A DNA stretch of 64,000 nucleotides, from positions 35,896 through 99,895 of the forward strand of contig JAYWCB010000001.1 in NCBI GenBank assembly GCA_043780835.1, read 5' to 3'. Source of the stretch: Minisyncoccota bacterium (GTDB taxonomy: Bacteria; Patescibacteriota; Minisyncoccia; Phycocordibacterales; UBA2100). The translations under genes were made by a program, and so were the position numbers. This document shows, piece after piece, positions 2,096 through 52,778 of this stretch. Position 1 is the first letter of the stretch. Every line of letters starts with the position of its first letter. The notes below the pieces were generated by a model. It was not told the origin of the DNA. It worked only from the letters and a program-made list of their open reading frames with translations, and did not search any database.

Positions 2096-3640
2096 ATGAA
2101 GTCGCCGAAAGCGAAATCAGCCACTGCGGGTAAGAAGGAATCTGCCCTACAGCGCCTCTCTGTATTTATGAATCCGTCTAAAACGGCAACCTCTGCATAT
2201 TGGTCAAAGATGCAATCAGAGTACATGATCGACGCCTTTAAAAGTGCCGCGAAACACGTGCCTGCGTATAGGTCCTTTTTGAAAGAGCGTGGCGTAATGC
2301 CGAAAGACATAAAGTCAGTTGCGGACTTTCGAAACGTACCTCCAACGTCAAAAAAGAATTATCTCCGAGCTCATCCGTGGGAGGACCTCTGCATGCCCGG
2401 CGCTCTTGCAGGCTCACAACTTGTATTAACCGCAACATCCGGATCAACGGGAGAGCCGTTTTACTTTCCGCGGACAGATGTCGTCGAAGAGCAGTCTTAC
2501 ATTTATCACCGCGCTTTTTTGAAAAACAGCGGTCTCGATCCGCAAGAGCCGACGCTCGTTATCGTAGCGTTTGGTATGGGAGTCTGGATCGGCGGACTCA
2601 TCACGTACGAAGCATTCAATCGTGTTTCGCAGCGAGATTTTCCTCTTACGGTACTTACTGCCGGAGTGAATAAGCACGAAATCTATGCTGCGCTACGCGA
2701 AATCGGCTCCCGATATACGCAGCTCGTGCTATGCGGGTACCCGCCGTTTGTAAAAGATATTATCGATGATGGTAAAGGTAACGGCGTTGACTGGAAGCAG
2801 TTCGATATGCGCATCGTTTGTGCGGCCGAAGGATTTTCTGAGGATTTCCGGGACTATCTCGTTGACGAAGCGCGGATGAAGAGTCGCTATCGAGACATTA
2901 TGAATATTTATGGCAGCGCAGAGCTTGGCACAATGGCGACTGAAACGCCGGTAGCAATTCTAGTGCGGGAACTGAGTTTGAAAAATCCGGTGCTCTTTTC
3001 AAAACTTTTCGGACAGGCGACACGATTGCCCACACTCGCGCAGTACGTGCCGTCATTTGTGAGCTTCGAAGCTGTCGACAATCGTATCTACTGCACGTCG
3101 GGCAATGTGCTACCGATGATCCGGTATGAAATCGGCGATCACGGCGGTGTCATGACGTACGCAGAGCTCAAAAATATTTGTGCCTCTGAAGGAATAGACC
3201 TTAAGGCAGAAGCAAAGCGAGTCGGCATTACAGATACCGTGAATGAACTTCCGTTTGTGTATGTGTATGAGCGCGCGGACCTTTCAACAAAACTCTATGG
3301 TGCGATCATTTATCCCGAGCACATAAAACACGGTCTTATTATCAAGGAACTGCATAAAGAGGTGACCGGCAAATTTACGATTGATACAAAGAATGACGAA
3401 AACCAGGATGAATACCTCGAGGTAAATGTTGAATTACAACCTAAAATTAAACCGACTGATGATTTGCAGCGTCGCGTCACGACTACTATTTCAAACGCGC
3501 TCATTGCAAAAAGTGCTGAGCATCGGAATAATTCTCAGTCTTTGGGAGATCGAGTTGTTCCCCGGATAGTCTTTTGGGAACACAATCATCCGGTGCAATT
3601 CCCCGTGGGCGCAAAACATCGCTGGGTGAAGAAGAAATAA
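2096..3640 (+). CDS. PaaK/CapK/F390-synthetase-like adenylate-forming enzyme (ANL superfamily)
   Basis: N-terminal 'HVPAYRSF...DIKSVADFRNVPPTSKKNYL' resembles PaaK. The AMP-binding motif 'TSGSTGEP' and 'YGSAELG' are present. True start may be an internal Met. Confidence 0.7.
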   Translation: MKSPKAKSATAGKKESALQRLSVFMNPSKTATSAYWSKMQSEYMIDAFKSAAKHVPAYRSFLKERGVMPKDIKSVADFRNVPPTSKKNYLRAHPWEDLCMPGALAGSQLVLTATSGSTGEPFYFPRTDVVEEQSYIYHRAFLKNSGLDPQEPTLVIVAFGMGVWIGGLITYEAFNRVSQRDFPLTVLTAGVNKHEIYAALREIGSRYTQLVLCGYPPFVKDIIDDGKGNGVDWKQFDMRIVCAAEGFSEDFRDYLVDEARMKSRYRDIMNIYGSAELGTMATETPVAILVRELSLKNPVLFSKLFGQATRLPTLAQYVPSFVSFEAVDNRIYCTSGNVLPMIRYEIGDHGGVMTYAELKNICASEGIDLKAEAKRVGITDTVNELPFVYVYERADLSTKLYGAIIYPEHIKHGLIIKELHKEVTGKFTIDTKNDENQDEYLEVNVELQPKIKPTDDLQRRVTTTISNALIAKSAEHRNNSQSLGDRVVPRIVFWEHNHPVQFPVGAKHRWVKKK

Positions 3641-11141: not shown

Positions 11142-12078
11142 ATCTTCCGCACACACCATAACGCGCTACGGATTGGCACTTCTGTGCCTCATTGCCGCAG
11201 CGTCTTTTTTCATAGTGTATGGGTATCTCAATACCGCACAGCCGCCGGTTGTTAAACAAGCTGCTGCCGTTGCTCGAGCTAACCCCTTCGATACTATCGC
11301 TATTGCTGCAAAAGCTGCCGTTGTTATAGATATTTCGACAGGCGAAACACTGTATGAAAAAAACGCAGATACACAGCTGCCGCTCGCCTCACTCACCAAG
11401 GTGCCGCTCGCGGTTGTTGTTGCAGAATCAATGCCGAAAAATTCGAGCGTAACCATACCGGTGGATACGGGGTGGAACAGTAACGCACAACAATTACATC
11501 GGGGTGAAGTATTGCGACTGCAGGATCTGATCGATTACACATTAATCGCAAGCTCCAACGACGGTGCGCAAATTCTTGGGACCGTTGCCGAGTCATCGGT
11601 AAGTCAAAAATATCCACAGGCACCGATTGGAGGCGCAACGCTGTGGCGCATGAATAACCTTGTATCAGAGCTCGGTCTTTCACACACGTATTTTCTTAAT
11701 GTAAGCGGTCTCGACGAAAGTCGCACACAGTCGGGTGCCTACGGATCTCCGCGAGATGTCGCAAAGATTTTTGCCTATGCTGCGCAAAATTATCCTGACA
11801 CATTCACCGGTACGACTCAAAACGGCCGGCTCGTGTATGCAGAAAGTGGCGGAGTCGCATCAGTAACAAATACCAATGAAGCACTCGGCGATATTCCCGG
11901 ACTGATAATGGGTAAAACCGGATTTACCGATCTCGCCGGTGGCAATCTTGCGGTCGTATTTGATATCGGCCTCGCACACCCGGTCGTTGCAGTTGTAATG
12001 GGCTCTACCGAATCAGCGCGTTTTAGCGATATGAAAATTCTCGTAAAAAAGGCACGGGAGTCGGTCATGTCGCGCTAG
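11074..12078 (+). CDS. D-alanyl-D-alanine carboxypeptidase (S11, PBP5-like)
   Basis: Active-site triad motifs 'ASLTK' (SxxK), 'SSNDG' (SxN) and 'GKTGFT' (KTG), with an N-terminal signal/anchor. Start possibly at 11110. Confidence 0.8.
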   Translation: MRNSKRAPLIPLMPNQETINRNESSAHTITRYGLALLCLIAAASFFIVYGYLNTAQPPVVKQAAAVARANPFDTIAIAAKAAVVIDISTGETLYEKNADTQLPLASLTKVPLAVVVAESMPKNSSVTIPVDTGWNSNAQQLHRGEVLRLQDLIDYTLIASSNDGAQILGTVAESSVSQKYPQAPIGGATLWRMNNLVSELGLSHTYFLNVSGLDESRTQSGAYGSPRDVAKIFAYAAQNYPDTFTGTTQNGRLVYAESGGVASVTNTNEALGDIPGLIMGKTGFTDLAGGNLAVVFDIGLAHPVVAVVMGSTESARFSDMKILVKKARESVMSR

Positions 12079-12084
12079 CTCTAT

Positions 12085-13164
12085 ATGGATGCATCACTGA
12101 CTGACATGATTCGTATTCTTGTGCCTGCCACAACCGCTTTTTCTATTGGTATTCTCTGCACGCCCGTTTTGACGCATTATCTCTACACATTTAAAGCGTG
12201 GAAAAAGAAGCCGGGCAAGCTCTCGCTCGATGGCACGCGCGCAGAGGAATTCAACCGATTGCACGAAAAACACGAGGTCCGTGCGCCGCGTATGGGCGGT
12301 ATTGTCATTTGGGGAAGCGTTCTCATTACGGCGCTTGGACTTTCGGTTGCGGCACACATTATCCCCGGTGCCGAAGTTCTGCGACTTGATTTTTTAAGTC
12401 GCAGTCAGACATGGATTCCACTAGCCGTACTCATCATCGGTTCGCTCGTCGGACTCGCGGATGATTTGTTGATTATTCAGCCAGAGGGTCAGGGGCTACC
12501 ACTGCGACTGCGACTTATTATTGTCGTGCTGTTATCGGGATTTATCGGGTGGTGGTTTTTCGACAAGCTCGATGTCTCGGCGATCAATGTCCCGTTTTCA
12601 AGTCCGCTCACACTGGGAATATTCATTATTCCATTTTTCATTGTTATGTCGCTGGGGCTATATGCATCGGGAGTCATTGACGGCATCGACGGTCTTTCCG
12701 GCGGAGTCTTTGCATCCATATTTGCCTCGTACACCATCATTGCCTTCGCGCAGCATCAAATTAATTTGGCGGCGTTTTCAGCGGCAATCATGGGTGGGCT
12801 CTTGGCATTTCTTTGGTACAACATTCCTCCTGCACGTTTTTACATGTCTGATACAGGGACCATGGGGCTTACGCTCACCATCGGTACGCTCGCGTTTATG
12901 ACAGATAACTTAAGCGGCGGAGTCGGTATATCGGTTCTGCCGATTATCGGGATGTTGCTCGTTCTCACGGTTGTGTCGGATGTATTACAGGTATTTTGGA
13001 AAAAGGTCATCGGCCGCAAGCTGTTTCGCGTGGCGCCGCTGCATCATCATTTCGAAGCGATCGGGTGGCCGGGGTACAAGGTTGTTATGCGCTATTGGGT
13101 GCTTTCCGTCGTATTTGCGGTTGCCGGAGTGATCATCGCGCTCGCCTCAATTTCAGTCGGTTAA
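12085..13164 (+). CDS. mraY: Phospho-N-acetylmuramoyl-pentapeptide transferase
   Basis: Polytopic membrane protein with MraY motifs ('DDLLI', 'NIPPARFYMSDTG', 'PLHHHFE'). Confidence 0.9.
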   Translation: MDASLTDMIRILVPATTAFSIGILCTPVLTHYLYTFKAWKKKPGKLSLDGTRAEEFNRLHEKHEVRAPRMGGIVIWGSVLITALGLSVAAHIIPGAEVLRLDFLSRSQTWIPLAVLIIGSLVGLADDLLIIQPEGQGLPLRLRLIIVVLLSGFIGWWFFDKLDVSAINVPFSSPLTLGIFIIPFFIVMSLGLYASGVIDGIDGLSGGVFASIFASYTIIAFAQHQINLAAFSAAIMGGLLAFLWYNIPPARFYMSDTGTMGLTLTIGTLAFMTDNLSGGVGISVLPIIGMLLVLTVVSDVLQVFWKKVIGRKLFRVAPLHHHFEAIGWPGYKVVMRYWVLSVVFAVAGVIIALASISVG

Positions 13165-23342: not shown

Positions 23343-26210
23343 ATGAAGTCGTACGATCACAAGAAAATTGAGCAAAAGTGGCAAAAACAGTGGGCAAAAG
23401 AGGGCGCGTACAAAACAGATGCCGATACGTCAAAACCTAAATATTACGTACTCGACATGTTTCCGTATCCGTCCGGTGCGGGGCTTCACGTAGGGCATCC
23501 AAAAGGCTACATAGCGTCTGACATTGTTGCGAGAAAGAAGCGCGCAGAAGGATATCGCGTGTTACATCCGATGGGCTGGGACGCATTTGGACTACCGGCG
23601 GAAAATTACGCAATCAAAACAGGTACTCCACCGCAGCAAACAACCGACGAGTCCATCGCGACGTTCAAATCTCAGATTTCTAATCTTGCGCTCTCATATG
23701 ACTGGGATCGTGAGATTGGTAGTCATCGACCGGATTACTATCGGTGGACGCAGTGGCTCTTTACAAAATTTTTCGAAAAAGGGCTTGTCTATAAAAAGAA
23801 GGCACTTGTAAACTGGGATCCGGTGGATCAGACTGTACTTGCCAACGAGCAGGTCTTACCCGACGGCACAGCGGAACGCTCCGGCGCAATTGTTGAAAAA
23901 AAAGATCTCGAACAATGGTTTTATAAAATTACTGACTACGCAGATGAGCTTGCCGGCAGCCTCGACACAATCGACTGGCCTGAGTCAACGAAAATAAATC
24001 AACGCAACTGGATCGGTCGCTCAGAGGGCGCAGAAATCGATTTTTACCTGGACTTCGGTGACGAGACAATCAATGCTCGCACGGATCCGCAGGGAAAGCG
24101 CGCGCACATTACCGTATTCACGACCCGACCTGACACGCTCTTTGGTGCTACATACCTTGTGCTTGCCCCGGAGCATCCATGGGTGACACTCGCGCTTGGC
24201 CATACAACGGTGCTTGAAAATAACGATGAGGTTGCACAATACGTGGAATCTTCAAAAAAGAAAACTGATATCGATCGTTTAGCTGCCAACAAAGAAAAGA
24301 CCGGTGTTCAGTTGAAAGGTGTTATGGCGGTCAATCCTGCAACCGGACAAAACATCCCACTCTTTGTTGCTGACTATGTATTGGCTCACTACGGTACCGG
24401 TGCAATTATGGCAGTGCCGGCTCACGACGATCGTGACATGCTTTTTGCCCGCACGTTCGATCTCCCGATTACGCAAGTCGTGGTACCGGTATACGGCGCT
24501 GCAGATAAGAGGCCGGATGCGGTCTTTCGACAAACGATTAATGCAGTAGTTCGCAATGACGACGGGCGTGTTTTGTTTTTGAAATGGAAAGACTACCAAT
24601 GGGTTACAAACGTCATTGGCGGCGTCGAACAGGGAGAAACCATAGAACGCGCTGCCATTCGTGAAGTACTCGAAGAAACCGGGTATCGCACCCGACCAAT
24701 TTTTTCTTCACCGATTGTGATCGAGTCACATTTCTATGCTGAGCACAAAAAGGAATGGCGTTCTCGTATGGATACACCCGTACTGCTTGAACTTGAGAGT
24801 GACCAAAAAGGACCTCTTTCAGAAGAAGAGCGAGAAAAACACGACACCGTATGGATGACATATGAAGAAGCGCAGAAACACGGTCTATTCCATAACAATA
24901 AACTTGCCCTAGATCTTGCCCTCGGAAAAATAATCTCCTACTCGGATCCGCTCTATGGCGAGGAACAGGTGCTCATAAATTCAGGAGAGTTTAATGGCAT
25001 GAATGTCCGTAATGCAAAAAAGGCGATGACTGAAAAATTCGGACGCATAAAGAAGACATATAAAATGCGCGACTGGCTTATTTCGCGTCAGCGATACTGG
25101 GGAACTCCGATTCCGATTGTGTACGATCCGGAAGGGAAGGCTCATGCGATACCTGAGCAGCATTTGCCGTGGCTCCTACCGACTGATGTTGAGTATCTTC
25201 CAAAAGGCACCTCGCCACTCGGGAGTTCGAAAGAATTATTTGAAAGAACGGAACGTATCTTTGGAAAAGGTTGGAAGCCGGAAATCGATACCATGGATAC
25301 CTTTGCGTGCTCTTCGTGGTATTTTTTCCGCTTTGCGGATCCGCATAACAGCGACGAGTTTGCATCAAAGAAAGCTTTGGAGGAATGGCTGCCGGTAGAT
25401 CTCTACATAGGCGGCGCAGAGCACACCGTGCTGCACTTGCTGTACGCACGCTTTTACACCAAAGCGCTACGAGACATGGGATACCTTGATTTCGACGAGC
25501 CGTTTCTTAAATTACGCCATCAGGGTCTGATCGTAGCAGAGGATGGACGCAAAATGAGCAAGCGATATGGCAACGTCATAAATCCTGACGACATCGTAGA
25601 GAGCTACGGAGCAGACACATTACGTGTCTACGAAATGTTTATGGGACCGTTTCAAGATTCGATTGCATGGAATACACAGAGTATGATCGGTTCACGGCGG
25701 TTTCTGGAGCGCGTGTGGCGACTGAGCGAACATGCGGGGGACACGCCTGATGACTCGCTCGAACGGCAGCTCCATCGCACCATTAAAAAAGTGACCGAAG
25801 ATATCGAATTGTTCAAGTTCAATACGGCGATTTCGACACTGATGATATTCGTAAATGAGGCGGAAAAAAAATCTCTGTCCGAAGACCAGTTCGGTCGCTT
25901 CTTGCAGTTGCTCGCACCGTTTGCGCCGCATATTGCAGAGGAACTCTGGCACGAAATCGGCCATATCGAATCTATCGTTTCGTTTCCAATGCCCCTCTAT
26001 GACGACGACATGCTCGAAGAAGATTTTGTAACAGTAGCGATCCAAATAAACGGAAAGACTCGCGCCGACGTTGTGCTCCCTATGGGCACCAATAACGCCG
26101 AAACTGAGACGCGGGCGGCAGAAGCAGTTGCAGCAAGACTCGACGGCAAAACAGTCACGCGCATCATAGTAGTCCCGAACAAATTGGTGAACTTTGTTCT
26201 CACAGAATAG
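23343..26210 (+). CDS. leuS: Leucyl-tRNA synthetase with an inserted Nudix domain
   Basis: 'HVGHPKGY' (HIGH), 'KMSKR', and CP1 editing motifs 'TTRPDTLFGATY' and 'GTGAIMAVPAHDDRD'. At 955 aa it is about 100 aa longer than E. coli LeuRS. Confidence 0.92.
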   Translation: MKSYDHKKIEQKWQKQWAKEGAYKTDADTSKPKYYVLDMFPYPSGAGLHVGHPKGYIASDIVARKKRAEGYRVLHPMGWDAFGLPAENYAIKTGTPPQQTTDESIATFKSQISNLALSYDWDREIGSHRPDYYRWTQWLFTKFFEKGLVYKKKALVNWDPVDQTVLANEQVLPDGTAERSGAIVEKKDLEQWFYKITDYADELAGSLDTIDWPESTKINQRNWIGRSEGAEIDFYLDFGDETINARTDPQGKRAHITVFTTRPDTLFGATYLVLAPEHPWVTLALGHTTVLENNDEVAQYVESSKKKTDIDRLAANKEKTGVQLKGVMAVNPATGQNIPLFVADYVLAHYGTGAIMAVPAHDDRDMLFARTFDLPITQVVVPVYGAADKRPDAVFRQTINAVVRNDDGRVLFLKWKDYQWVTNVIGGVEQGETIERAAIREVLEETGYRTRPIFSSPIVIESHFYAEHKKEWRSRMDTPVLLELESDQKGPLSEEEREKHDTVWMTYEEAQKHGLFHNNKLALDLALGKIISYSDPLYGEEQVLINSGEFNGMNVRNAKKAMTEKFGRIKKTYKMRDWLISRQRYWGTPIPIVYDPEGKAHAIPEQHLPWLLPTDVEYLPKGTSPLGSSKELFERTERIFGKGWKPEIDTMDTFACSSWYFFRFADPHNSDEFASKKALEEWLPVDLYIGGAEHTVLHLLYARFYTKALRDMGYLDFDEPFLKLRHQGLIVAEDGRKMSKRYGNVINPDDIVESYGADTLRVYEMFMGPFQDSIAWNTQSMIGSRRFLERVWRLSEHAGDTPDDSLERQLHRTIKKVTEDIELFKFNTAISTLMIFVNEAEKKSLSEDQFGRFLQLLAPFAPHIAEELWHEIGHIESIVSFPMPLYDDDMLEEDFVTVAIQINGKTRADVVLPMGTNNAETETRAAEAVAARLDGKTVTRIIVVPNKLVNFVLTE
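24483..24971 (+). other. Nudix hydrolase domain inserted within the CP1 editing domain of LeuRS (aa about 381-543)
   Basis: Perfect Nudix box 'GGVEQGETIERAAIREVLEETGY' (G-x5-E-x7-REUxEExGU) at nt 24618-24686. It lies between the editing-domain motif 'AHDDRD...PITQVV' and 'SGEFNG', where E. coli has only about 25 aa. Confidence 0.6.
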
Positions 26211-33314: not shown

Positions 33315-33779
33315 AAAAACTGAATACATATTTGGTTTTAGAGTTTGAAATAATTTTTGAATACATCTGCGCACCTCCGCAAGAGAGGGAAATATTAATC
33401 GCTACTATTTTTGAATTCCGGATTCCGGGGCTTCGCAGTAGCGAGGGGAGAAATATACTATACGTCGCACAATATATCTTTTGCGACACTTACGCATAGA
33501 GCAGATGAACATAGTACGCCATGTGGCCACATTCGAATTCGTCTACTTATGAATCGTAATCCTTCGAATTCGCCGCGTTTGTATTGCTACTTGCCCTTAT
33601 GTTTCGAATCTCAAACCCCTATCCATATATTCGATTTTCAGCAGTATTCGATTTGTTGATGAATGATCCTCTCCCCTGTTTTTTCCATTTTTCGCGGGGG
33701 AGTCGCGTCTTCGAAAAATCGCGTATATAGTTCCGTCGGAGGAAAATTTGACCTCGTAAAACGCTCTAGGAGTAATTCG

Positions 33780-34214
33780 ATGCGTCGATACCTGTGCCTG
33801 ATAGCTGCCTTGCAGTTTATTTTGGCGGGTTCCGCGCACGCGGAGCTGGCCAAGCCTACGTGCGAAGAATATTTCAACGCCTACTTTGCTATCGTTCGGA
33901 AACCTGTTTCGCTCGAAGACGACAGTATTGTCCGCATCGCAAAAGCACTGGCAGATAATCACATTCTTGTGAATCAAGAGCGTACTGAATATGCAACGAC
34001 GGAATTCCTCTTACGCGAACTTGCGACACTGAGTGTTGAAGATGTGCTTTTGTGGATCGGACGACAGCACGTGCATTTGGAATCGCGTATACGGGTCAAT
34101 AGATGTATTTTTGAACCACCGTTCACGCCGGTCAATGTGCAGCTTATGATTCCGAAGGGCTTTGAGTTCAAGTGCAAATTACGCGCGCCGACGCAGAAAA
34201 AGTTACCCAACTAA
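33780..34214 (+). CDS. Small secreted hypothetical protein
   Basis: ATG 33780 has an AGGAG RBS and gives signal peptide 'MRRYLCLIAALQFILAGSAHA'. The ORF call extends to 33663, but the upstream part looks non-coding. Confidence 0.5.
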   Translation: MRRYLCLIAALQFILAGSAHAELAKPTCEEYFNAYFAIVRKPVSLEDDSIVRIAKALADNHILVNQERTEYATTEFLLRELATLSVEDVLLWIGRQHVHLESRIRVNRCIFEPPFTPVNVQLMIPKGFEFKCKLRAPTQKKLPN

Positions 34215-35526: not shown

Positions 35527-35847
35527 TTAATGTGCGGCCGACTTCTGTGCCACAAAAAGAAGCGCACCCTGATCGTCCTTCGGCGACGTCTTATTGCGAC
35601 GTCGCAAACCGCATATCTGACATACGTGAACAATGTCATACGCAGGCGATGAGCCCTCGAGCGCGCAAGGTTCCATCAAACCCTTGCAGCCCTGCGCTCT
35701 ATCGCCCGGTTGTATGTCAACGTGTTTGCTCCATAAACAATGCGGACAATGATTCGTGTAACCACTCCCGATCACTTCCATATTGCAATTCTCGCACACG
35801 AAATTCTCGACTGTTCGCTTGAACATGCAACTACTGTACCGCAACAT
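35527..35847 (-). CDS. Cys/His-rich zinc-finger-like protein, resembles the RNHCP-domain family
   Basis: 'CENC...YTNHCPHC...CQIC' arrangement. Family assignment is from memory of the motif only. Confidence 0.45.
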   Translation of the reverse strand: MLRYSSCMFKRTVENFVCENCNMEVIGSGYTNHCPHCLWSKHVDIQPGDRAQGCKGLMEPCALEGSSPAYDIVHVCQICGLRRRNKTSPKDDQGALLFVAQKSAAH

Positions 35848-37765
35848 TCGTCGCCTGCGTAACAGCGGTACCGTTGAGCGTTGTGCAAGAAATGGTAAAC
35901 CTCATAATACCTTTTTCTGGTGCGGTAATGATTTTAGATCCCTCATTCGAGACTGCGACAGTCGTCGTTCCTACTGGCGCTACGAGCTGTGTGCGACATG
36001 GTACATCATTGCGCATACCGACACTCGACCAGGAAATTACAATCGAATTCCCTACGAATGCCTGTTGTGGCTGTGCAATAATCGAAACGACAGCCTGCTG
36101 TTGTTGACTCTGGTACGGAATTTGTCGTACCGTTACATTCTGAGATTGAGTCTGTGGCTTGTTGGATACCCCCGAAATGATTCCAGAAAGAAACGATGAA
36201 AGTGAATTGGTACCGGTAGTACCACTTCCCTGTCGCATCGACCCGGTAGAATCGTCGAAATTAAATAGATTGGCTGCACCAAACGCACTTCCTTCATTCA
36301 TATTCGTTCCCCCTGTCGGGTAACTAACACCAGTTGGGTAATTGCCCCCCGTGATCCCTGAAAAAGGAGAAGAAGAGCCGCCCGAAGCGTATCTCCCGCC
36401 ACTGAGGATTTGTCCGCTTTCGTAGTACTGCGTAAATCGCTCGCCATATCGTGTGACACTCGTGCCGAGCATGTCTGTGCGATATTGATTGGCGAGGCCG
36501 CCTGGACCACCAAACCACACTTTCGCAGCGTTTTCGTAGCCTCCATATTTGTCGGCGTACATTTGAAACCGATGCTCAAACACCCGCTCCTGTGCTTGAG
36601 GATCAGCGCGAAATTGCTCGGGGCTCATGCGGACACCGAGCGCCTGCTCAGTCCACGGTCCAACGTTGTTTCCCATCACCTGATATTTGCCATATGCACG
36701 ATCACCGTTTCTAGTTACAGGACCAAGCATGTCGTAGCGACCACCGCTACTCTCAATATTGGCGATGGCCTGCTTGGCTTTTTCCATAGGAGTTTTTTCC
36801 GCAAAGGTGCTCGTATCGTTTTGTAGAATCTGGCTTTGTCGCTCTTGCTGCTGTGCGTCTGCTATTTGTTTCGCTTCCTCTGCTGTCATACGCTTTTGCG
36901 GTTCAATGTTTGCGATATTTTTAATGACATCGTCGTTTAGATTCAGTTGTCTTGCAATTGCCTGAGCACCCGCCGTGTCATTTGTTATGGACTTTTCGAT
37001 CATTGCCTTGATCTTTTCAGAGTCGGTTTCAACCAACGACTTTGCTTGGCCGGCAGGTACACCGTATGTATCTCTCAAGACTTGCTCCAAGGTTTGAGAA
37101 TCGGTTGGTACCGCAGGAGGTTTCGCAACATTTTCATCCGGAATCGTAATTGATGCGGGCTTTGGAATTTCTGCAGGGGCATTGTCCGGCCGTGGATCAC
37201 TTGCGGCCTTGAGATCATTCAAGGCTGCTTGCATTTGTGATTGTCCGGCGGCGGGATTTGTCTGCACCTGTTTCAAGCCATCGAGAAACTTACCCATAGA
37301 GGCGTATAATGCGTTTTCATCGCAACGAGACTTGGTAATCGTCTGGTCGATGATTTGAAATCCTATAACTTTTGAATACACGTCTTTTGTAGACAAGGAT
37401 GCAGTCGGCTCTGTTTCTCCTTTCAAACACCCTCGTCTGGTACCCTGCGCGGGATCGTTTGGTAATTTATCTCTGTATTTGCACGCATCATTTGCCAAAA
37501 CTTCTACGGTAATACCGCTATACCCGAGCGTGAGTGATGCCCTCAGGTTGTAGCATGCATTCGGACAATACATTGCAGTGTTCAAAAATTTCTCCGCATC
37601 ACTTTCCACTGTGTCTTTCGTGAGCTCCATGTGAGACCTCGGCGGCGCCTCAGACGATCCTCCGGCAGGGCATTTTTTCACTGAGAGAGGCGGACGCACA
37701 AGTGCTTCCGCATACAACGGAGACAGCAGTACAAGAAATCCTATAAAAAAAGCACCGACGCGCAT
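35831..37765 (-). CDS. Large secreted protein with central lytic-transglycosylase (SLT/GH23-like) domain and G/S/T/Q-rich low-complexity C-terminal region
   Basis: Signal peptide 'MRVGAFFIGFLVLLSPLYAEA'. Contains 'IANIESSGGRYDMLGPV...AYGKYQVMG' (catalytic E-S ... GxxQxM pattern), poly-Q linkers, a Gly/Ser/Thr-rich segment, and a terminal Cys-pair beta-rich domain. Confidence 0.55.
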   Translation of the reverse strand: MRVGAFFIGFLVLLSPLYAEALVRPPLSVKKCPAGGSSEAPPRSHMELTKDTVESDAEKFLNTAMYCPNACYNLRASLTLGYSGITVEVLANDACKYRDKLPNDPAQGTRRGCLKGETEPTASLSTKDVYSKVIGFQIIDQTITKSRCDENALYASMGKFLDGLKQVQTNPAAGQSQMQAALNDLKAASDPRPDNAPAEIPKPASITIPDENVAKPPAVPTDSQTLEQVLRDTYGVPAGQAKSLVETDSEKIKAMIEKSITNDTAGAQAIARQLNLNDDVIKNIANIEPQKRMTAEEAKQIADAQQQERQSQILQNDTSTFAEKTPMEKAKQAIANIESSGGRYDMLGPVTRNGDRAYGKYQVMGNNVGPWTEQALGVRMSPEQFRADPQAQERVFEHRFQMYADKYGGYENAAKVWFGGPGGLANQYRTDMLGTSVTRYGERFTQYYESGQILSGGRYASGGSSSPFSGITGGNYPTGVSYPTGGTNMNEGSAFGAANLFNFDDSTGSMRQGSGTTGTNSLSSFLSGIISGVSNKPQTQSQNVTVRQIPYQSQQQQAVVSIIAQPQQAFVGNSIVISWSSVGMRNDVPCRTQLVAPVGTTTVAVSNEGSKIITAPEKGIMRFTISCTTLNGTAVTQATNVAVQ

Positions 37766-37818
37766 TGAAATGATTGTACCGTCGCGGCTCGCACAGCGTT
37801 TCCATACATGTGGAGAAG

Positions 37819-39204
37819 CTACCGTCGTGCGAACGATCTCAGCATGTTACTGATGAGCGATTGAAACGATGAAAGAATCGTCGCAAAGGCAGACGCTGTC
37901 GCAGGACTCATCGTATTCGTCGGCTCTAATGACGAAGGCGCACCAAACGTGCTGACAGGTCTCGTTGCCTGTACGGATACATCGAGTGAATCCGGTCGTG
38001 GCTGTTGTGACGATACCGACGATGGTCCTCGCACGGTTCCGGTTGGACGGCTGTCATCTAATTGCGACTCACTCATGAGAGAAACATTACTGTTGTCATA
38101 GACCGGTGTAAGCACGGGGTTTTGTCCTCTTGGAAACATATGCATAGAGCTTGGAGTTGTTCCTGCTGACCGAGAGTTCTGAGAGTCGGATGTGCTCGGG
38201 ACAGTGAACAGATCGAGTAATGCTTGAGTTGCATGTTGGACGATTCGTATGCCAGACGTTGCACTCGACTGTTGAAAAAGTGAATTTAACATGGGATTTT
38301 GACTATTTCTCGCTTGGTCAGCTGTATTTTGCGGAACAGGAGTGGTGTATGCTTGTTGCGAATACGGCCCTGTATCGCTGCCTGAGCTCGTGACTGTACC
38401 GCCCGAAACAGCTGATCCTAATCCGGAAGAGCCACTGTTTAATGCTCCCGAAGAGACTCCAGTCGGTGCTGATTGTGCCTGATACGGAGAAGTCTGATAT
38501 GACTGCTGTTGCTGCGGTGTATAGGAAGACGGAGGTGGTAGTTGATTTTGAGGAGCAGAAGTTGCGGGAGGTATATATGCCGCTGCAACCGGCGTTCCCT
38601 CTTCCTTTACTTGTCCGCCGCACGGCGCCGTCGAAGATTGTCCGCTCTGTATCGACTGCGGAATGCCCGCGATTTGTGTCCAGTCTTTTGGCGCCCTGTT
38701 CGGATTTTTTGTTATGTATTTCATGGCATAATCCGCGGAATATCCATTGAAATTACCGACCGCAATATCCATTTTGTCGGTGCGAGCTCGTCCATCGCAG
38801 TATTGCGGAAGTCGCGCGCACGAGCATGTGCCATTGAACGCACAACCGGTATCGTGAATATAACCGACCACGTTTTCGATAGTATGTGTTTTGCCGTCAC
38901 CGCCATTTCCGGGCGGCGATGTGTAGGTAACAGTTCCGATACAGAAATAGCGCCCTTTCATAACACTCGCCGACGCGAGTGTTACATATTTTGATTTTCC
39001 CGTTCGCACATCGTCGAGTGTATGAATACCATTCGAGGAACCTTCAGCGTCTTTTTGCGACGCGGTCATCGGTCCTTGCATCCATCCGGCTGCACCGGGC
39101 CCATAAAACGTCCAATTGATTGAATTCGCTGCCTCAGCTCGTGAATATGCGAAAAAAATCAGAACAATACTGAAGTAAAAAACTTTTCGCTGCATTCCAC
39201 ACAT
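37819..39204 (-). CDS. Secreted 3D-domain (MltA/YuiC-like) protein with long Q/S/T/P-rich disordered tail
   Basis: Signal peptide. Has 'YVTLASASVMKGRYFCIGTV...VVGYIHDTGCAFNG...TDKMDIAV' (three conserved Asp). About 300 aa are low complexity. Confidence 0.55.
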   Translation of the reverse strand: MCGMQRKVFYFSIVLIFFAYSRAEAANSINWTFYGPGAAGWMQGPMTASQKDAEGSSNGIHTLDDVRTGKSKYVTLASASVMKGRYFCIGTVTYTSPPGNGGDGKTHTIENVVGYIHDTGCAFNGTCSCARLPQYCDGRARTDKMDIAVGNFNGYSADYAMKYITKNPNRAPKDWTQIAGIPQSIQSGQSSTAPCGGQVKEEGTPVAAAYIPPATSAPQNQLPPPSSYTPQQQQSYQTSPYQAQSAPTGVSSGALNSGSSGLGSAVSGGTVTSSGSDTGPYSQQAYTTPVPQNTADQARNSQNPMLNSLFQQSSATSGIRIVQHATQALLDLFTVPSTSDSQNSRSAGTTPSSMHMFPRGQNPVLTPVYDNSNVSLMSESQLDDSRPTGTVRGPSSVSSQQPRPDSLDVSVQATRPVSTFGAPSSLEPTNTMSPATASAFATILSSFQSLISNMLRSFARR

Positions 39205-39637: not shown

Positions 39638-41438
<1,801 letters not shown>

Positions 41439-41442
<4 letters not shown>

Positions 41443-42032
41443 ACAAATTCTTTGAGAAGGATTTCTTGGGCCTTTGCAAAAGCCTTCGCTCGATGACTAA
41501 TCTCATTTTTTTCCGCTAGCATCATGACTCCACCGGCTTTACCGCTCTCGTCGTATATGAATATCGGATCCTGCGCCATACCGTTTGTGCCAATCGGCTC
41601 GTGCGCAATGGTCCCCCGCGCAATTCCCTCACACACGCGAACACGATCATCCTCCGGATCATAAATGGTTATAACCGAACGAAATTGGGCGCCTCTCATG
41701 CCATCTGGCACATCCACCATTTTTCCAATGATAAGAGAATGTCCATTATCGTGAGTCGGTGAGGTAATCGGTTTTGTATCCACTCCCGGCCAACCATTGA
41801 GTGCATCGATTTCAAGACCTGAGTCTTCGCTCAGAACAAGCTTTCCGCTCCATTTTCCATAAGACATCGCCTTAATGATTGAATTACCTTCGAATGTCCG
41901 CCCCGGCTCTGCAACGTCTCTTGTAATGCCGATATCATCAAGGCTCATCACGATAAAAGGTGTCCCCTCTAAGAGATTCTTAATTTCTGCGATTTTGCCT
42001 TTATTTCCTGTTGCTATGAGTAGTTCTCGCAT
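41439..42032 (-). CDS. rdgB: Non-canonical purine NTP pyrophosphatase (RdgB/HAM1/ITPase)
   Basis: 'LIATGNKGKIAEI' N-terminus and a Ham1 fold. Confidence 0.85.
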
Positions 42033-42035
42033 AGT

Positions 42036-42473
42036 TTATGTGTTACAAACCCAGTCACTGTATATAACTCCATTTCGCACATGAACAAGTGCATGGGCCA
42101 CGTGAGGAGCCATTGGTGTAGGAAGACTGTCACATGCGAACCATCCGGCGTCATCGCATTTTTTAGGTTCCATGTTTTTTGGCTCGCCACTCCATTTCGT
42201 CGCCTTGAAGAAAATGTCTATATATTCAATGCCATCGTTATTGTGGAGAACATGTACTCCGTGCAGATCTTCCGGCTCGATATCTACACCAACCTCCTCT
42301 TTTGCCTCACGGATCATCGCGCTCTGTGCCGATTCCATGCCGTCTACGTGACCCGCAGGTAAATCATAGAATCCGTCGCGATAACCGGTATTCGCGCGTC
42401 TTTGCAACCAAACCCTTCCATCCTGTTCAAGTATAAGGAGCACTGCAACCGGCATTGTGAAGCGCTCCGCCAT
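42036..42473 (-). CDS. Nudix hydrolase
   Basis: Nudix box 'LPAGHVDGMESAQSAMIREAKEEVGV'. Its start overlaps the atpG stop. Confidence 0.8.
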   Translation of the reverse strand: MAERFTMPVAVLLILEQDGRVWLQRRANTGYRDGFYDLPAGHVDGMESAQSAMIREAKEEVGVDIEPEDLHGVHVLHNNDGIEYIDIFFKATKWSGEPKNMEPKKCDDAGWFACDSLPTPMAPHVAHALVHVRNGVIYSDWVCNT

Positions 42474-42476
42474 AGA

Positions 42477-43391
42477 CTAGCGCATTGCTTCCATGCCGGA
42501 GGTGATTTCTGAAACTTCGCGAGTGATCGCGGCCTGACGTACCTTGTTGAAAAGTCGAGTGAGGTTGTGTGCCATTTCTTTTGCTTTGTCAGTTGCACTC
42601 TTCATTGAAACCATGCGAGCGGAGTGTTCCGAGGCCTTACTCTCAAGGAGACCGTGGTACACGGCGATGTTCAATAGTTTAGGCAGAAGCACTGCAAGCA
42701 CCGCATCAGCATCCGGTTCGATTTCGTATGATGCCGGAGCTGCGGTAACTTCTTCCGACGGCGCATATTTACCGCGAGCAGGTCGAATGCCTTTAACAGT
42801 TTCTCGCATGAGCTCGGCGGTAATCGGTACGATCTGCCGAATCATCGGTTCTTGTTCAAACGTTGATACAAAGTTTTGGTACGCAATAATAGCAGTGCCG
42901 ATTTCTCCGGAAACATGCCAGGAAAGAATCAAATCGGTGACGACGCGCATTTCTGCCTCGGTCACATCATCGCGCTTATTGAGATCGCGCAACCGCACAT
43001 CGTATCCACGATTGTGAAAGTAATCCCCTCCGCGGCGTCCGATACACGCCATTACGATATTTTCTTTCGAAAGTCCGCGTGCAGCAATTTCTGTCTCGAC
43101 TTTTCGTATAACCGCGCTGTTCAATGATCCCGCAAGTCCTTTGTCGGACGTGACAACAATAAACGCGATTTTACCGGCGCGTTCGCTCATCAACGGATGG
43201 CGCGACATATCAGCAGTGCTGGAAATGCGCTCTAGTACCGTAAGCGCAGCAGCGGCATACGAGCGGCCGGAAAGCGCACGCTCTTGAGCTTTGCGCATTT
43301 TGACCGCAGAAACAGCCTCCATGGCATGAGTAACAGTTCCCGTCTTCTTATACGAGATTATTTTCGATTTAATTGTTTTCAGGTTTGCCAT
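42477..43391 (-). CDS. atpG: F-type ATP synthase gamma subunit
   Basis: 'MANLKTIKSKIISYKKTGTVTHAMEAVSAVKMRKAQE' is a classic gamma N-terminus. Confidence 0.9.
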   Translation of the reverse strand: MANLKTIKSKIISYKKTGTVTHAMEAVSAVKMRKAQERALSGRSYAAAALTVLERISSTADMSRHPLMSERAGKIAFIVVTSDKGLAGSLNSAVIRKVETEIAARGLSKENIVMACIGRRGGDYFHNRGYDVRLRDLNKRDDVTEAEMRVVTDLILSWHVSGEIGTAIIAYQNFVSTFEQEPMIRQIVPITAELMRETVKGIRPARGKYAPSEEVTAAPASYEIEPDADAVLAVLLPKLLNIAVYHGLLESKASEHSARMVSMKSATDKAKEMAHNLTRLFNKVRQAAITREVSEITSGMEAMR

Positions 43392-47168: not shown

Positions 47169-47798
47169 TTAGTTCGTCTTTTTTGGCGGAAGCAACACAT
47201 TGTCTATAACAATAACGACACCGTTGGTTCCTTCGTACTGAGTAATAACAACAGCACTATTGACCATAGGGATCTTATCGATTCCGTAGCTGAAATTGAG
47301 CGCATCGCGCGAGAGTGCCTCTATCGTGCCAACCTGCATCTGATCAACGTCAACTGCGCGTCCGGAGACGACGTGGTATTGAATCAATCGCTTCTTTTCG
47401 GCCAGTGTCATGGCGCTGACTGTTCCCGGAGGAAGCTGCGCGAACGCACCATTTGTAGGAACAAAAATTGTGTATTTTGTTTGCGATTTTGGATTGATCG
47501 TAGCTGCAATGCCGGTCGAGCGGAAGTACGCATTGAATGTCGATGCGCTTGCAAGACCTCGAACGATTGTTACTACGTCTTGATTTCGCTTGCTCGTTTC
47601 TTTTTTGACGCTTATTGGTCCGGATTTTTTAGTGCCCGTGGTAGGTGTGGTCGAAGACGCATGCTCGGGGCCGCTCGTCGCGCTACCGAGGGGAGACAGC
47701 GAGCCCAGCGGTCGATTTGCTGAAAGCCACCACAGTCCGAGAGCGGCGATTACAATCAGACTCACCGCACCCACCCAAATGCCCTTGTTTTGATTCAT
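47169..47798 (-). CDS. Fasciclin (FAS1) domain secreted/anchored protein
   Basis: N-terminal TM, then 'YTIFVPTNGAFAQLPPGTV...LQYHVVSG' FAS1 motifs. Confidence 0.7.
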   Translation of the reverse strand: MNQNKGIWVGAVSLIVIAALGLWWLSANRPLGSLSPLGSATSGPEHASSTTPTTGTKKSGPISVKKETSKRNQDVVTIVRGLASASTFNAYFRSTGIAATINPKSQTKYTIFVPTNGAFAQLPPGTVSAMTLAEKKRLIQYHVVSGRAVDVDQMQVGTIEALSRDALNFSYGIDKIPMVNSAVVITQYEGTNGVVIVIDNVLLPPKKTN

Positions 47799-47854
47799 AA
47801 TGTAGAGATTACTATAATGTCCTGCCTCTTCGACAGGACTCCCTTAAAGACGCG

Positions 47855-48733
47855 CTAATTGTAGCGCTTTTTCATAAACGCCGCCATGACGCGTTTGAGG
47901 GGCTGCTCCTTGTCTGTGAAGCCGTGATCTGATTCCGGTATAATAGAAACCTCCCCCGTGTAGATAAATTTTGTAAACCACGCTGCCAAATCTTCAGCCG
48001 ATCGGTCTGAATACTCATCATTTTCTGCCAAAACTGCTAAAACAGGTAGTTGTACCTTTATTAGCGTCTTTGGCAGCAGTTTTGGTGTTGCATAGCAAAA
48101 GATTTCTTCAGGAGAATCCGGTGTATATAGACTAATAAAGCGCTGCGCATCACACTTAAATTCGCCTGAAAGATTGTCCGGAATCATTGCGTGCGGCTTG
48201 CCTGCTTTGACGAGCGCACGAGCTGTAGCAAGAGCTTTTTTGTATGAGCGATTTTTGTTGTCGAGATGCATGTAGGATGCGTAGTCGCTAATTGGCGCGA
48301 GAATCATAATCCCCTTCACATTCTGTATGTTTCCCTTGGAAGCAAAGTATATTGACTTCTGACATCCGGTCGAGTGCCCGGCAAGGAAAATCTCTTTGAC
48401 ACCCTGTCCGCGTACAAAATTGAGCGCGCCATCAATATCGTCTACACAGTCTCTAAATACCTCGTGCGCACAACCTGCTAGTATCCATTTCTGTTTTTTT
48501 GATTTTTTTATATTTTTCGTGACAAAGTTCATTAACCCATGTCCGCGGTTGTTGAATGTGAGGACAGCAGTTTTCTTATCAACGAGTTCCAGTGCTCGAC
48601 GCATAGAAAACGCGCTTGACATAAGCCCGTGCACGAGCACAACGGCTTGCTCAGGACGTGAGGGACCAAACCAGAGCCCGTTCAAATGGACCCCTGTAGG
48701 GGTCTCAATGTGGACGACATGTGCTGGTCGCAT
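47855..48733 (-). CDS. Alpha/beta-hydrolase fold protein
   Basis: Nucleophile elbow 'GHSTGC' and a downstream His region. Confidence 0.7.
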   Translation of the reverse strand: MRPAHVVHIETPTGVHLNGLWFGPSRPEQAVVLVHGLMSSAFSMRRALELVDKKTAVLTFNNRGHGLMNFVTKNIKKSKKQKWILAGCAHEVFRDCVDDIDGALNFVRGQGVKEIFLAGHSTGCQKSIYFASKGNIQNVKGIMILAPISDYASYMHLDNKNRSYKKALATARALVKAGKPHAMIPDNLSGEFKCDAQRFISLYTPDSPEEIFCYATPKLLPKTLIKVQLPVLAVLAENDEYSDRSAEDLAAWFTKFIYTGEVSIIPESDHGFTDKEQPLKRVMAAFMKKRYN

Positions 48734-48750
48734 ATAGTCAATATATAGAT

Positions 48751-49377
48751 CTATTTTGTTTTTTCTGCAATCGCGAGATTTTGGTCGATAGCGATATTTC
48801 GTGTGACGAGCGCGAGCTTAAGCTCGTCCTGCGACTTAGGCATTTTTTTGGTATCAATGCGTCCAACGATTTTGATCGTGACATTCTTACACATGCCGAG
48901 TGCTTTTGCGGGATTCCTTTTTTTTCCGTTTACCGTTACGAAATCATGATGATCCAAAAGAATATCGATGGTGTTGTGAATACGAGGGTTCATTGCATCA
49001 CCGATCACACGTAGACCGATTTCCTCGTGCACAAACTCACGGCCGCAATTTACATCTCGAGCAGTAGAAGTTGAAGCAGGCACGACCTCTATTACGGTTC
49101 CATAGGGCAACTCGTCGGCAAGATCCGGAGATCGAGCTGCGATTATATCGGGATCCGTATACGCTCCAATTGAAGTCAGAAACGGAGTCGAGTCTGTCTG
49201 TCCAACAACTGCGTTATAAGCAGTCATTTTGACGACAAGAGTCGGATATATAGACTGCTCCGGCGTCACCTCGACAGAGTCGTTGGTCTGGGCAAATGCC
49301 ACAGGAACGAAACTTTGCAAAAGAAAAACGCCCGTAACGGCCGTTGTTATGAATCCTGTCATGCGCTGCCAGGTCAC
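48751..49377 (-). CDS. Secreted 3D/YuiC-like (RlpA-like barrel) domain protein
   Basis: Signal peptide. Has 'GQTDSTPFLTSIGAYTDPDIIAA...LPYGTVIEV...VIGDAMNPRIHNTIDILL'. Confidence 0.55.
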   Translation of the reverse strand: MTWQRMTGFITTAVTGVFLLQSFVPVAFAQTNDSVEVTPEQSIYPTLVVKMTAYNAVVGQTDSTPFLTSIGAYTDPDIIAARSPDLADELPYGTVIEVVPASTSTARDVNCGREFVHEEIGLRVIGDAMNPRIHNTIDILLDHHDFVTVNGKKRNPAKALGMCKNVTIKIVGRIDTKKMPKSQDELKLALVTRNIAIDQNLAIAEKTK

Positions 49378-49532: not shown

Positions 49533-51213
<1,681 letters not shown>

Positions 51214-51878: not shown

Positions 51879-52778
51879 CTAGCCCTTGCCGCCGTGACCG
51901 AGCAGCAGGCTCATGTCATCGACGTGCATTGCCGTCATCATGAATGGCGACATACCGCTCGTCAGACTGTCGGAGCTGTGCATCGAGTAGTCCTCGGTGT
52001 GGCTCGAGTAGCTACCGGGACCCTCGTGCGAGAACTGATTGTGCACATCAATAGACGAATCGCGGGCCACACCGTGGTTACCGAAGATGTCGTCGTACTG
52101 CGTGAACGATCCGGCGCGCACGATCAATTGGTTCGAGTCGAACGAGTCGTTGCCGAACTGCATATGCCTGGTGTCGATCAGCGTATCGCGGAAGGCGAAG
52201 CCATCCAACGATTCGAAAATCGATTGCACATGCACGCCGGCACCTTCATGTATCTCCAGGTGGCTCGCGTCGTTTTGGAACGAGCCAATCTGCAGATGCG
52301 AGAAGTCCGACGACACATCTCGGAACGAGAAGTTGTCGGACGTACCGAACCACGAGTCGCTGTGGATCGCCGCAAATTCGCTCGACTGGTAGTGACTGGA
52401 CGACACATCGTAACCCGGCGCACTAAACCACGAGCCAAACCCCGACGTCGAACTGACGTTGTACGAGCTCGTGTGGCCGAACCAGCTGTACTGGTCGACC
52501 GTATCGATCGAGAAGTTTGCGAACTGGTAGTTGCCGCCCGAGAACGGGCCATTTTGGAAGTAGTCGCTGCTGAAGGAGCTTACATCGTAATGATGACGTT
52601 GCTCGACGACCGGGAACGAATATCCGAAGAACGGAACGGGCGAAACCGAGCCGATCATTGCAACCGGTGATGAAACCAAACTCATCGCAGGATCAGCGTA
52701 GCCGCCAAAATTGCCGTAGAGGTTTTCGAAACCAAACATATCGTCGTACAAACCGTAGCCAGTCAATCCGCTGCGCAT
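51879..52778 (-). CDS. Low-complexity FG/SxF/Asp-rich protein, compositionally atypical (high GC3)
   Basis: 299 aa rich in F, S, D, G, Y, H with repeated FG/GFG/SWFG/FGNDSFDSNQ-like motifs. The minus frame shows strong C/G third positions (ttc, tcg, gac, tac). The antisense ORF 51894..52670 is the in-register Arg/Val-rich mirror. Confidence 0.45.
   Translation of the reverse strand: MRSGLTGYGLYDDMFGFENLYGNFGGYADPAMSLVSSPVAMIGSVSPVPFFGYSFPVVEQRHHYDVSSFSSDYFQNGPFSGGNYQFANFSIDTVDQYSWFGHTSSYNVSSTSGFGSWFSAPGYDVSSSHYQSSEFAAIHSDSWFGTSDNFSFRDVSSDFSHLQIGSFQNDASHLEIHEGAGVHVQSIFESLDGFAFRDTLIDTRHMQFGNDSFDSNQLIVRAGSFTQYDDIFGNHGVARDSSIDVHNQFSHEGPGSYSSHTEDYSMHSSDSLTSGMSPFMMTAMHVDDMSLLLGHGGKG

Follow-up and report, generated by a model that had tools for sequence, protein, structure and literature searches.

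A module-swapping locus beside the ATP synthase operon of a Minisyncoccota bacterium and its predicted exported wall-cleaving proteins

How ultrasmall bacteria from the candidate phyla radiation (CPR, Patescibacteria) remodel their own cell wall, and how they breach the wall of a host, are questions to which their lytic transglycosylases may be relevant. A part for these enzymes in breaching the host envelope has already been put forward, on little specific evidence (PMC11665869). A locus in a Kaiserbacteria-like Minisyncoccota bacterium (assembly GCA_043780835.1, contig JAYWCB010000001.1, positions 35,896 to 99,895 of the forward strand; this 64,000-nucleotide stretch is called the window below) raises the same question: whose wall do its products cut? 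Two adjacent genes encode protein 1 (35831..37765, 644 amino acids, aa) and protein 2 (37819..39204, 461 aa), and a third encodes protein 3 (48751..49377, 208 aa); all three genes and their features lie on the minus strand. Proteins 1 and 2, and with them protein 3, are probably exported, surface-held proteins that cleave glycan strands, and our best guess, which we hold with moderate confidence, is that they act as autolysins making space in the organism's own wall. For proteins 1 and 2 we infer export, tethering, catalysis and substrate alike, whereas the ORFs, the resemblances in fold, the invariant residues of the presumed active sites, the housekeeping synteny, the wall-synthesis genes of the organism and the mosaic module exchange are what the data show directly. 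The contribution of the locus is a documented site of module swapping; the kinds of enzyme are known, their families unannotated, and the accepted picture of peptidoglycan hydrolases, which are well known to be modular, is not overturned.

Predicted export and domain structure of protein 1

The initial annotation had described two open reading frames (ORFs) of 644 and 461 aa on the minus strand and a third gene further along; the coordinates of the first two proved exact, and the third gene exists, with GTG as its start codon. NCBI calls shorter starts for protein 2 (458 aa) and protein 3 (203 aa, from ATG). In each protein the N-terminus is hydrophobic and leads into a small-x-small site (A19-E-A21 in protein 1, A23-E-A25 in protein 2, A27-F-A29 in protein 3), and in none does hydropathy indicate a further transmembrane (TM)-like segment or is a lipobox Cys present. 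The predicted Sec signal peptide of protein 1 (aa 1-21, 37703..37765) comprises MR, a hydrophobic core and A-E-A; aa 3-14, with a hydropathy of 2.81, form the only TM-like stretch of the protein, and the family hardly varies at A21. That of protein 2 (aa 1-25, 39130..39204) reaches a hydropathy of 2.68 over aa 8-19 and ends in SRAEA before a further Ala, its A-x-A site aligning with the A-x-A of homologs. These features are kept in the homolog alignments of both proteins. Signal peptides were called from inspection and hydropathy, and an uncleaved signal anchor also fits. Proteins 1 and 2 would be exported by the Sec route, be retained at the surface and cut peptidoglycan glycan strands outside the cytoplasmic membrane.

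An AlphaFold2 (AF2) model of protein 1, built on an 87-sequence alignment, contains four confident domains (aa 25-190, 222-314, 325-450 and 558-644), and the gene may be read as that of a modular exported GH23-like muralytic protein of five parts. The first is an unassigned Cys-rich alpha/beta N-domain (aa 25-190, 37196..37693), hypervariable between close relatives. It is followed by a helical domain (aa 222-314, 36824..37102; AF2 helices 223-314, predicted local distance difference test score, pLDDT, above 90) that precedes the catalytic core. The initial annotation contained neither of these two domains. The putative core (aa 325-450, 36416..36793) is alpha-rich with a small hairpin and has a GH23/Slt-type lysozyme-like fold. 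A linker of about 100 aa then follows (aa 454-557, 36095..36406), rich in Gly, Ser, Thr and Gln (S 18%, G 17%, T 10%, Q 10%) and predicted to be disordered, with a pLDDT of 31-46; composition and a pLDDT below 50 both bear out the Gly/Ser/Thr-rich segment noted initially. The accompanying description of poly-Gln linkers was overstated, as a single QQQ (aa 305) and a single QQQQ (aa 554) are all that the protein contains. The last part, announced as a C-terminal beta domain with a Cys pair and recovered as such, is an immunoglobulin (Ig)-like beta-sandwich (aa 558-644, 35834..36094) of seven strands with a pLDDT of about 90, in which C590 and C627 are nearly invariant. This sandwich probably binds the wall or the cell surface, and surface retention of protein 1 would depend on it, on the N-domain or on both. 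No DNA tandem repeats were found in the low-complexity regions.

The AF2 fold of the core resembles solved structures of Slt, Mlt and g-type lysozyme proteins, which places it among them at the level of fold, at an identity of 12-16%; the Slt-type matches span 150-160 residues and are thus longer than the core alone. Both GH23/SLT motifs are present, namely motif I (Glu-Ser) and motif II (G-x-x-Q). In a 30-sequence alignment of the core, E338 and the Ser after it are each found in 30/30 sequences; across G359-K-Y-Q362, G and Y reach 30/30, Q 29/30 and K 28/30. In the 87-sequence alignment the motifs are at least 90% conserved. The stretch 'ESSGGRYDMLGPV...AYGKYQVMG', quoted in the initial annotation and present in protein 1, is the best-conserved part of a large family. 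Glu338 (codon 36752..36754), in the E-S motif, is the likely catalytic acid, judging from conservation in the alignment. The product could be either an anhydro-muropeptide, as from a transglycosylase, or a reducing end, as from a muramidase.

Sequence models do not recognise this core. Pfam returned 0 families at E<=1 for protein 1, PF01464 included, NCBIfam returned nothing relevant, and searches of the PDB with the sequence and the family profile gave nothing significant, the best profile match being a lysozyme at E 0.84. Comparison with the PF01464 domain of the relative P0012 by hhalign gave a weak match in register (probability 31%, E 5e-4) that pairs E-S and 'AYGKYQ' of protein 1 with 'VES' and 'ACGLFQ'. 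The SLT/GH23 assignment therefore stands by fold and motifs and lacks the PF01464 match. Among the family-1 lytic transglycosylases and GH23 enzymes compared (E. coli Slt70, 1qsa; P. aeruginosa Slt, 6fc4; C. jejuni Cj0843c, 7lam; MltC, 4c5f), protein 1 differs in its accessories, the Cys-rich N-domain, the long disordered linker and the Ig-like C-domain, and in going unrecognised by the Pfam SLT model.

Proteins 1 and 2 have their full-length relatives solely in CPR bacteria (Candidatus Kaiserbacteria, Pacebacteria and Parcubacteria by name), protein 1 in Kaiserbacteria/Pacebacteria-type CPR and protein 2 in Kaiserbacteria/Parcubacteria. The core family itself is widespread beyond CPR. It is found in alphaproteobacterial proteins of about 550 aa, at aa ~700-830 of Sinorhizobium tape-measure proteins of about 1,000 aa and, in relatives, fused with Peptidase_M15_4. 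In PHROGs, aa 316-446 of protein 1 match the unannotated phrog_24990 at 2e-28, and among sequenced phages the family is confined to tape-measure and minor-tail ('glycosylase') genes (33 records).

This raises the question of whether the two genes are remnants of a prophage or mobile element, that is, tail lysin genes. Over ~110-120 aa the protein 1 core shares 40-53% identity with stretches of tape-measure and minor-tail proteins of phages, with E down to 8e-27, and the phage tail lysins of Sinorhizobium phage phiLM21 (tape-measure) and of the Streptomyces phage Manuel type ('minor tail protein / glycosylase') carry the same core family. However, only the core of ~120 aa is common to the phages, and the architecture is not; protein 1 is cellular, with a predicted signal peptide and a conserved chromosomal locus, and has nothing else in common with these lysins. 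Immediately upstream of both genes is the F1Fo ATP synthase operon, and after them come an RNHCP-domain gene and a flavodoxin-like gene, with YchF also among the neighbours, and no phage, plasmid or secretion-system context is found in the neighbourhood. The guanine-cytosine (GC) content of the region is in line with that of the window, and synteny holds across the related loci described below with their six different protein 1 orthologs. A prophage or mobile-element origin is contradicted by this context and synteny and was rejected as very improbable. Identity of protein 1 as a phage tail lysin or tape-measure protein (TMP) was likewise set aside, since it has no TMP domain (PF06791 and others) and non-phage neighbours.

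Proteins 2 and 3 and a probable double-psi beta-barrel

Protein 2 is predicted to be an exported protein with an MltA/YuiC-like domain and a long tail. Its N-domain (aa 27-185, 38650..39126; pLDDT above 90 over aa 30-180) is probably a double-psi beta-barrel of MltA/YuiC (3D)-like type with a Cys-rich insertion between two retained Asp. A phmmer search over 1.84 billion representatives retrieved 214 clusters with this domain, 70 of them at E<=1e-10. Sequence searches of Pfam, NCBIfam, PHROGs and the PDB gave no match to protein 2, and profile searches of the PDB with its family, including a broadened profile, gave nothing significant. PF06725 was detected neither in the protein nor in 10 distant relatives nor in 21 domain segments (E<=5), a Foldseek comparison of the model with the PDB returned noise only, and no match to the domain was found in sequenced phages and plasmids.

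Across 117 domain segments D118, G120 and F123 are invariant (117/117), as is D146 (116/116), and a T-x-Y motif is present (T32 102/108, Y34 105/108). In YuiC of B. subtilis, D162 is catalytic, D151 is the ligand of the -2 sugar, D129 is the third Asp and T91/Y93 have an orienting role, with a D151-D162 spacing of 11 (PMC4499186); the three Asp of MltA are D261, D297 and D308. Matched to the roles in YuiC, the invariant Asp pair and T-x-Y suggest that protein 2 keeps the catalytic pair and not the full triad. Asp146 (codon 38767..38769), taken as the equivalent of YuiC D162 and MltA D308, would probably be the single catalytic acid and Asp118 would hold the -2 sugar, these equivalences following from motif order without superposition. 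Of the three Asp only D118 and D146 are kept: the column of the first holds D in 47/117 segments, usually as 'A[SG]DP', while the window protein and its clade have Ala79 there. The two Asp of protein 2 are 28 residues apart, compared with 11 in the Sps-family protein YuiC and 13-14 in 51 members of its own family, because some 15 inserted, Cys-rich residues (C121, C127, C129, C136) lie between them. The 3D domain first proposed for protein 2 is therefore only a partial one: two Asp and T-x-Y are there, the first Asp and a PF06725 match are not. Protein 2 appears to be a derived representative of a 3D-like family outside Pfam coverage, set apart from YuiC and from MltA (GH102) by its motif spacing and Ala79. 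That protein 2 is not a lytic transglycosylase at all, and is a non-catalytic wall-binding or wall-loosening protein of the expansin or loosenin kind, we consider quite unlikely.

Distant members of the family have Amidase_2, PG_binding_1 and Zeta_toxin domains as fusion partners; the first two, like Peptidase_M15_4 with the protein 1 core, count in favour of the wall-cleaving account. Giant metagenome proteins of 2,000-4,000 aa also embed the protein 2 domain, namely P0270 (2895 aa, with a Zeta-toxin domain), P0274, P0328 and P0366.

The tail of protein 2 (aa 186-461, 37822..38649) comprises 276 aa rich in Ser, Gln, Pro and Thr (S 19%, Q 10%, P 10%, T 10%). The extended Q/S/T/P-rich disorder that the initial annotation had seen holds for most of it (pLDDT mostly below 50) and is interrupted by conserved islands and two predicted helices. 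One helix (aa 317-333, 'SGIRIVQHATQALLDLF', 38206..38256) is a conserved motif and amphipathic, with a hydrophobic moment (muH) of 0.56, a value reached by 0.1% of shuffles; the aa 311-320 block of the tail is 91% identical among the 10 closest homologs. The other lies at the C-terminus (aa 434-459, 37828..37905; pLDDT 70-82); its muH of 0.66 is the maximum of the protein, it is amphipathic in 10/10 closest homologs, and it is a candidate membrane-surface anchor. The tether of protein 2 would then consist of a long flexible S/Q/P/T spacer and a terminal amphipathic helix lying on the outer face of the membrane. The E. coli proteins PBP5 and PBP6 are low-molecular-weight penicillin-binding proteins with C-terminal amphipathic-helix membrane anchors. 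Protein 2 resembles them as a predicted exported wall enzyme ending in such a helix, an analogy of sequence property only, and differs in having ~250 disordered residues between enzyme domain and helix.

The conserved C-terminal helix is found in exactly those protein 2 homologs that are without an Ig-like domain. Several other relatives of protein 2 end in a C-domain homologous to the C-terminal sandwich of protein 1 (E 4e-16, 9e-10 and 5e-9), so that one C-terminal module serves two unrelated catalytic folds and is a candidate surface-targeting signal in the clade; the lineage of the window's protein 2 has the amphipathic helix instead. A separate case is P0133 (672 aa, Candidatus Kaiserbacteria), in which two copies of the protein 2-type domain precede the shared Ig-like C-domain. 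Its second copy has the short canonical spacing ('HDTNADVKGRPDKIEI') and a Glu at the position of the catalytic Asp.

Protein 3 is a small, predicted exported protein of 3D/YuiC type, an assignment based on homolog names and motifs. Parcubacteria hold many relatives of it (138 at E<=1e-3), and JGI and NCBI label its homologs '3D (Asp-Asp-Asp) domain-containing protein'. T52-x-Y54, D85, D127 and D138 are each conserved in 35/35 sequences, and the D127-D138 spacing of 11 matches that of D151-D162 in YuiC. PF06725 misses 35/35 members of the family, PHROGs gave no match to protein 3, and a PDB search returned nothing significant, with YuiC appearing as weak fragments only (E 0.22-0.92). The proposed 3D/YuiC-like identity of protein 3 thus has all the motifs and the homolog names behind it, without the Pfam match. 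Kinship between proteins 2 and 3 was rejected: BLASTP and profile-profile comparison with narrow and broad profiles detect no similarity, so the two are not paralogs in any practical sense. No paralogs of any domain of these proteins were found elsewhere in the window.

The Pfam check that had been suggested for the three proteins (PF01464 and PF06725) fails for all of them and for their relatives. The domain calls themselves are partly supported: despite the failed sequence-model searches, the fold bears out that for protein 1 and probably, in part only, that for protein 2. Two predicted wall-cutting domain families are thus missed entirely by Pfam and NCBIfam models, and automated annotation therefore reports them as 'hypothetical'.

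Module exchange at a fixed locus and the choice of target wall

The protein 1 gene was compared across related loci (L001-L003 and L005-L008) that carry six different protein 1 orthologs. All six occupy one position, in which atpC is followed by the gene and then by RNHCP or the flavodoxin-like gene, and a protein 2 homolog precedes the protein 1 ortholog only in the closest lineage of the window. A scan of GTDB returned a single Kaiserbacteria locus, with the same protein as in L001. The family has a common scaffold with a variable central slot. The window-type central module also occurs in P0003-5, P0009, P0010 and P0014-16. In P0012 the slot holds a canonical PF01464 SLT domain (5e-10), and in P0002, P0006, P0007 and P0008 a Cys-rich module related to the SLT of P0012 (hhalign 96%, a figure resting on four sequences). 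The central module of P0011 has as its sole PDB match the RlpA-like barrel PA4485 (E 0.044, with the hallmark motif aligned), and P0013 carries a further, unassigned module. The presence of other glycan-cleaving modules in the same slot of positional orthologs points to glycan cutting as the conserved role.

Divergence at this fixed position is mosaic. Against L002, L006 and L007, whose AtpD is 95-98% identical to that of the window, the core is 72-85% identical and the N-domain only 29-36%. Replacement of the core is seen in the comparison with L005, where the flavodoxin-like protein is 88% and the N-domain 72% identical, and again in those with L001 and L008, where AtpD is 85% and the N-domain 50-51% identical. 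The N-domain and the catalytic module have thus been swapped independently of each other. A parallel is provided by RpfB/YabE, in which a lysozyme-like fold was likewise displaced by a double-psi barrel within a conserved scaffold and context (PMC1084345; summarised in PMC4499186). At the present locus GH23-like, SLT and RlpA-like modules alternate in one slot. The case differs from RpfB/YabE in that exchange occurs within one candidate phylum, in some instances at an AtpD identity of 95-98%, and involves the N-domain independently, and in that the scaffold is unrelated to DUF348/G5. A fixed chromosomal site at which N-domains and catalytic modules are exchanged offers a natural experiment on the drivers of diversification.

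The exposed domains of protein 1 may be under diversifying selection, and the mosaic evolution of the protein is compatible with an outward-facing role, short of proof. This is where a host-directed function, a serious alternative for protein 1, has to be weighed. Protein 1, and perhaps protein 2, would be displayed on the surface of an epibiont to breach host peptidoglycan for attachment, nutrient release or passage of a pilus, with the N-domain and the Ig-like C-domain setting host specificity. Independent swaps of N-domain and catalytic module among genomes with AtpD 95-98% identical are expected when a variable partner is faced, although phage pressure on an exposed surface protein could yield the same mosaicism and peptidoglycan hydrolases are notoriously modular in general. 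An outward-facing or host-directed role of protein 1 is also favoured by the phage-tail affinity of its core, a family otherwise found in phage proteins that cut walls from the outside, and by the fusions of distant relatives, and the protein 2 domain occurs in proteins of 2,000-4,000 aa, one with a Zeta-toxin domain. A precedent for an MltA fold turned on the wall of another cell exists in Bdellovibrio bacteriovorus, which lives on other bacteria and secretes an MltA-like lytic transglycosylase onto its prey (PMC10127604); organism and architecture are different in the window. On the other side, the genes stand in a core housekeeping block, away from any setting of secretion system, pilus or mobile element, the organism has a wall of its own and needs autolysins, and Kaiserbacteria are without a known host. 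We regard the host-directed role as possible but clearly the less probable one.

A bolder version would see the atpC-RNHCP locus as a cassette-like, recombining site for a surface enzyme that opens the host wall with a phage-tail-type lysin domain, its exchangeable modules determining the hosts. This is doubtful in our view; if true, the host range of an uncultivated CPR lineage could be read in the genome from the module type.

An own-wall autolysin role is favoured by the housekeeping synteny and by the organism's own wall synthesis. Genes for a DD-carboxypeptidase, a transferase of GT4 MraY/WecA type and a SEDS protein (FtsW/RodA) also lie in the window, from which it follows that the organism builds its own sacculus. 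Proteins 1-3 may accordingly be pictured as autolysins for growth, division and the insertion of envelope-spanning machines. Several points weigh against this preferred account. Between genomes with AtpD at 98% identity, protein 1 retains only ~50%, and its domains are swapped besides, which sits poorly with a purely housekeeping role. Elsewhere, the core family belongs to phage tail proteins, whose attack on foreign walls comes from the outside. Proteins 1, 2 and 3 go unrecognised by curated sequence models, the likeness of protein 2 to YuiC and MltA follows motif order and not residue-level superposition, and the export call is a rule of thumb drawn from hydropathy and inspection. The activity and localisation of proteins 1 and 2 are predictions from sequence and structural model.

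Genomic setting and neighbouring genes

A promoter and terminator scan of 35.3-39.7 kb gave counts at or below chance and was uninformative. The ATP synthase operon upstream of the two genes runs in the order a, b, delta, alpha, gamma, an inserted NUDIX-Ham1-NUDIX trio, beta and epsilon. The trio, of nucleotide-sanitising type, lies between atpG (42477-43391) and atpD (39638-41026) at 41032-42473 on the minus strand and consists of NUDIX (41032-41442), Ham1/ITPase (41439-42032) and NUDIX (42036-42473) genes. Variants of it are kept in Kaiserbacteria-related loci, including L002, L007 and L008, with NUDIX only in L001 and NTPase_I-T plus NUDIX in L006.

Four ORFs of the window were without a Pfam match at the thresholds used: 2096-3640 (plus strand, 514 aa), 33663-34214 (plus, 183 aa), 50818-51213 (minus, 131 aa) and 51879-52778 (minus, 299 aa).

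The related loci also contain an unusual fusion, a class-I (leucyl-type) tRNA synthetase of ~950-1120 aa with embedded extra Pfam matches. It concerns 11546-13935 in L002 and 12470-14467 in L006, both with alpha/beta-hydrolase and NUDIX matches, 15291-15947 in L007 with NUDIX only, and 13633-15971 in L008 with weak alpha/beta-hydrolase matches only. The window ORF 23343-26210 (plus strand, 955 aa) may be the counterpart of this synthetase. L008, a Kaiserbacteria-related contig, further carries an OMP_b-brl (PF13505) match at 11747-12583 on the minus strand, which is unexpected if the cells are monoderm.

Between the gene for the ATP synthase a subunit and that for protein 3 (47169-48733, minus strand), the window encodes two proteins, one with a fasciclin domain (47169-47798) and the other an alpha/beta hydrolase of the DUF1749 family (47855-48733), which may form another surface-protein cluster.

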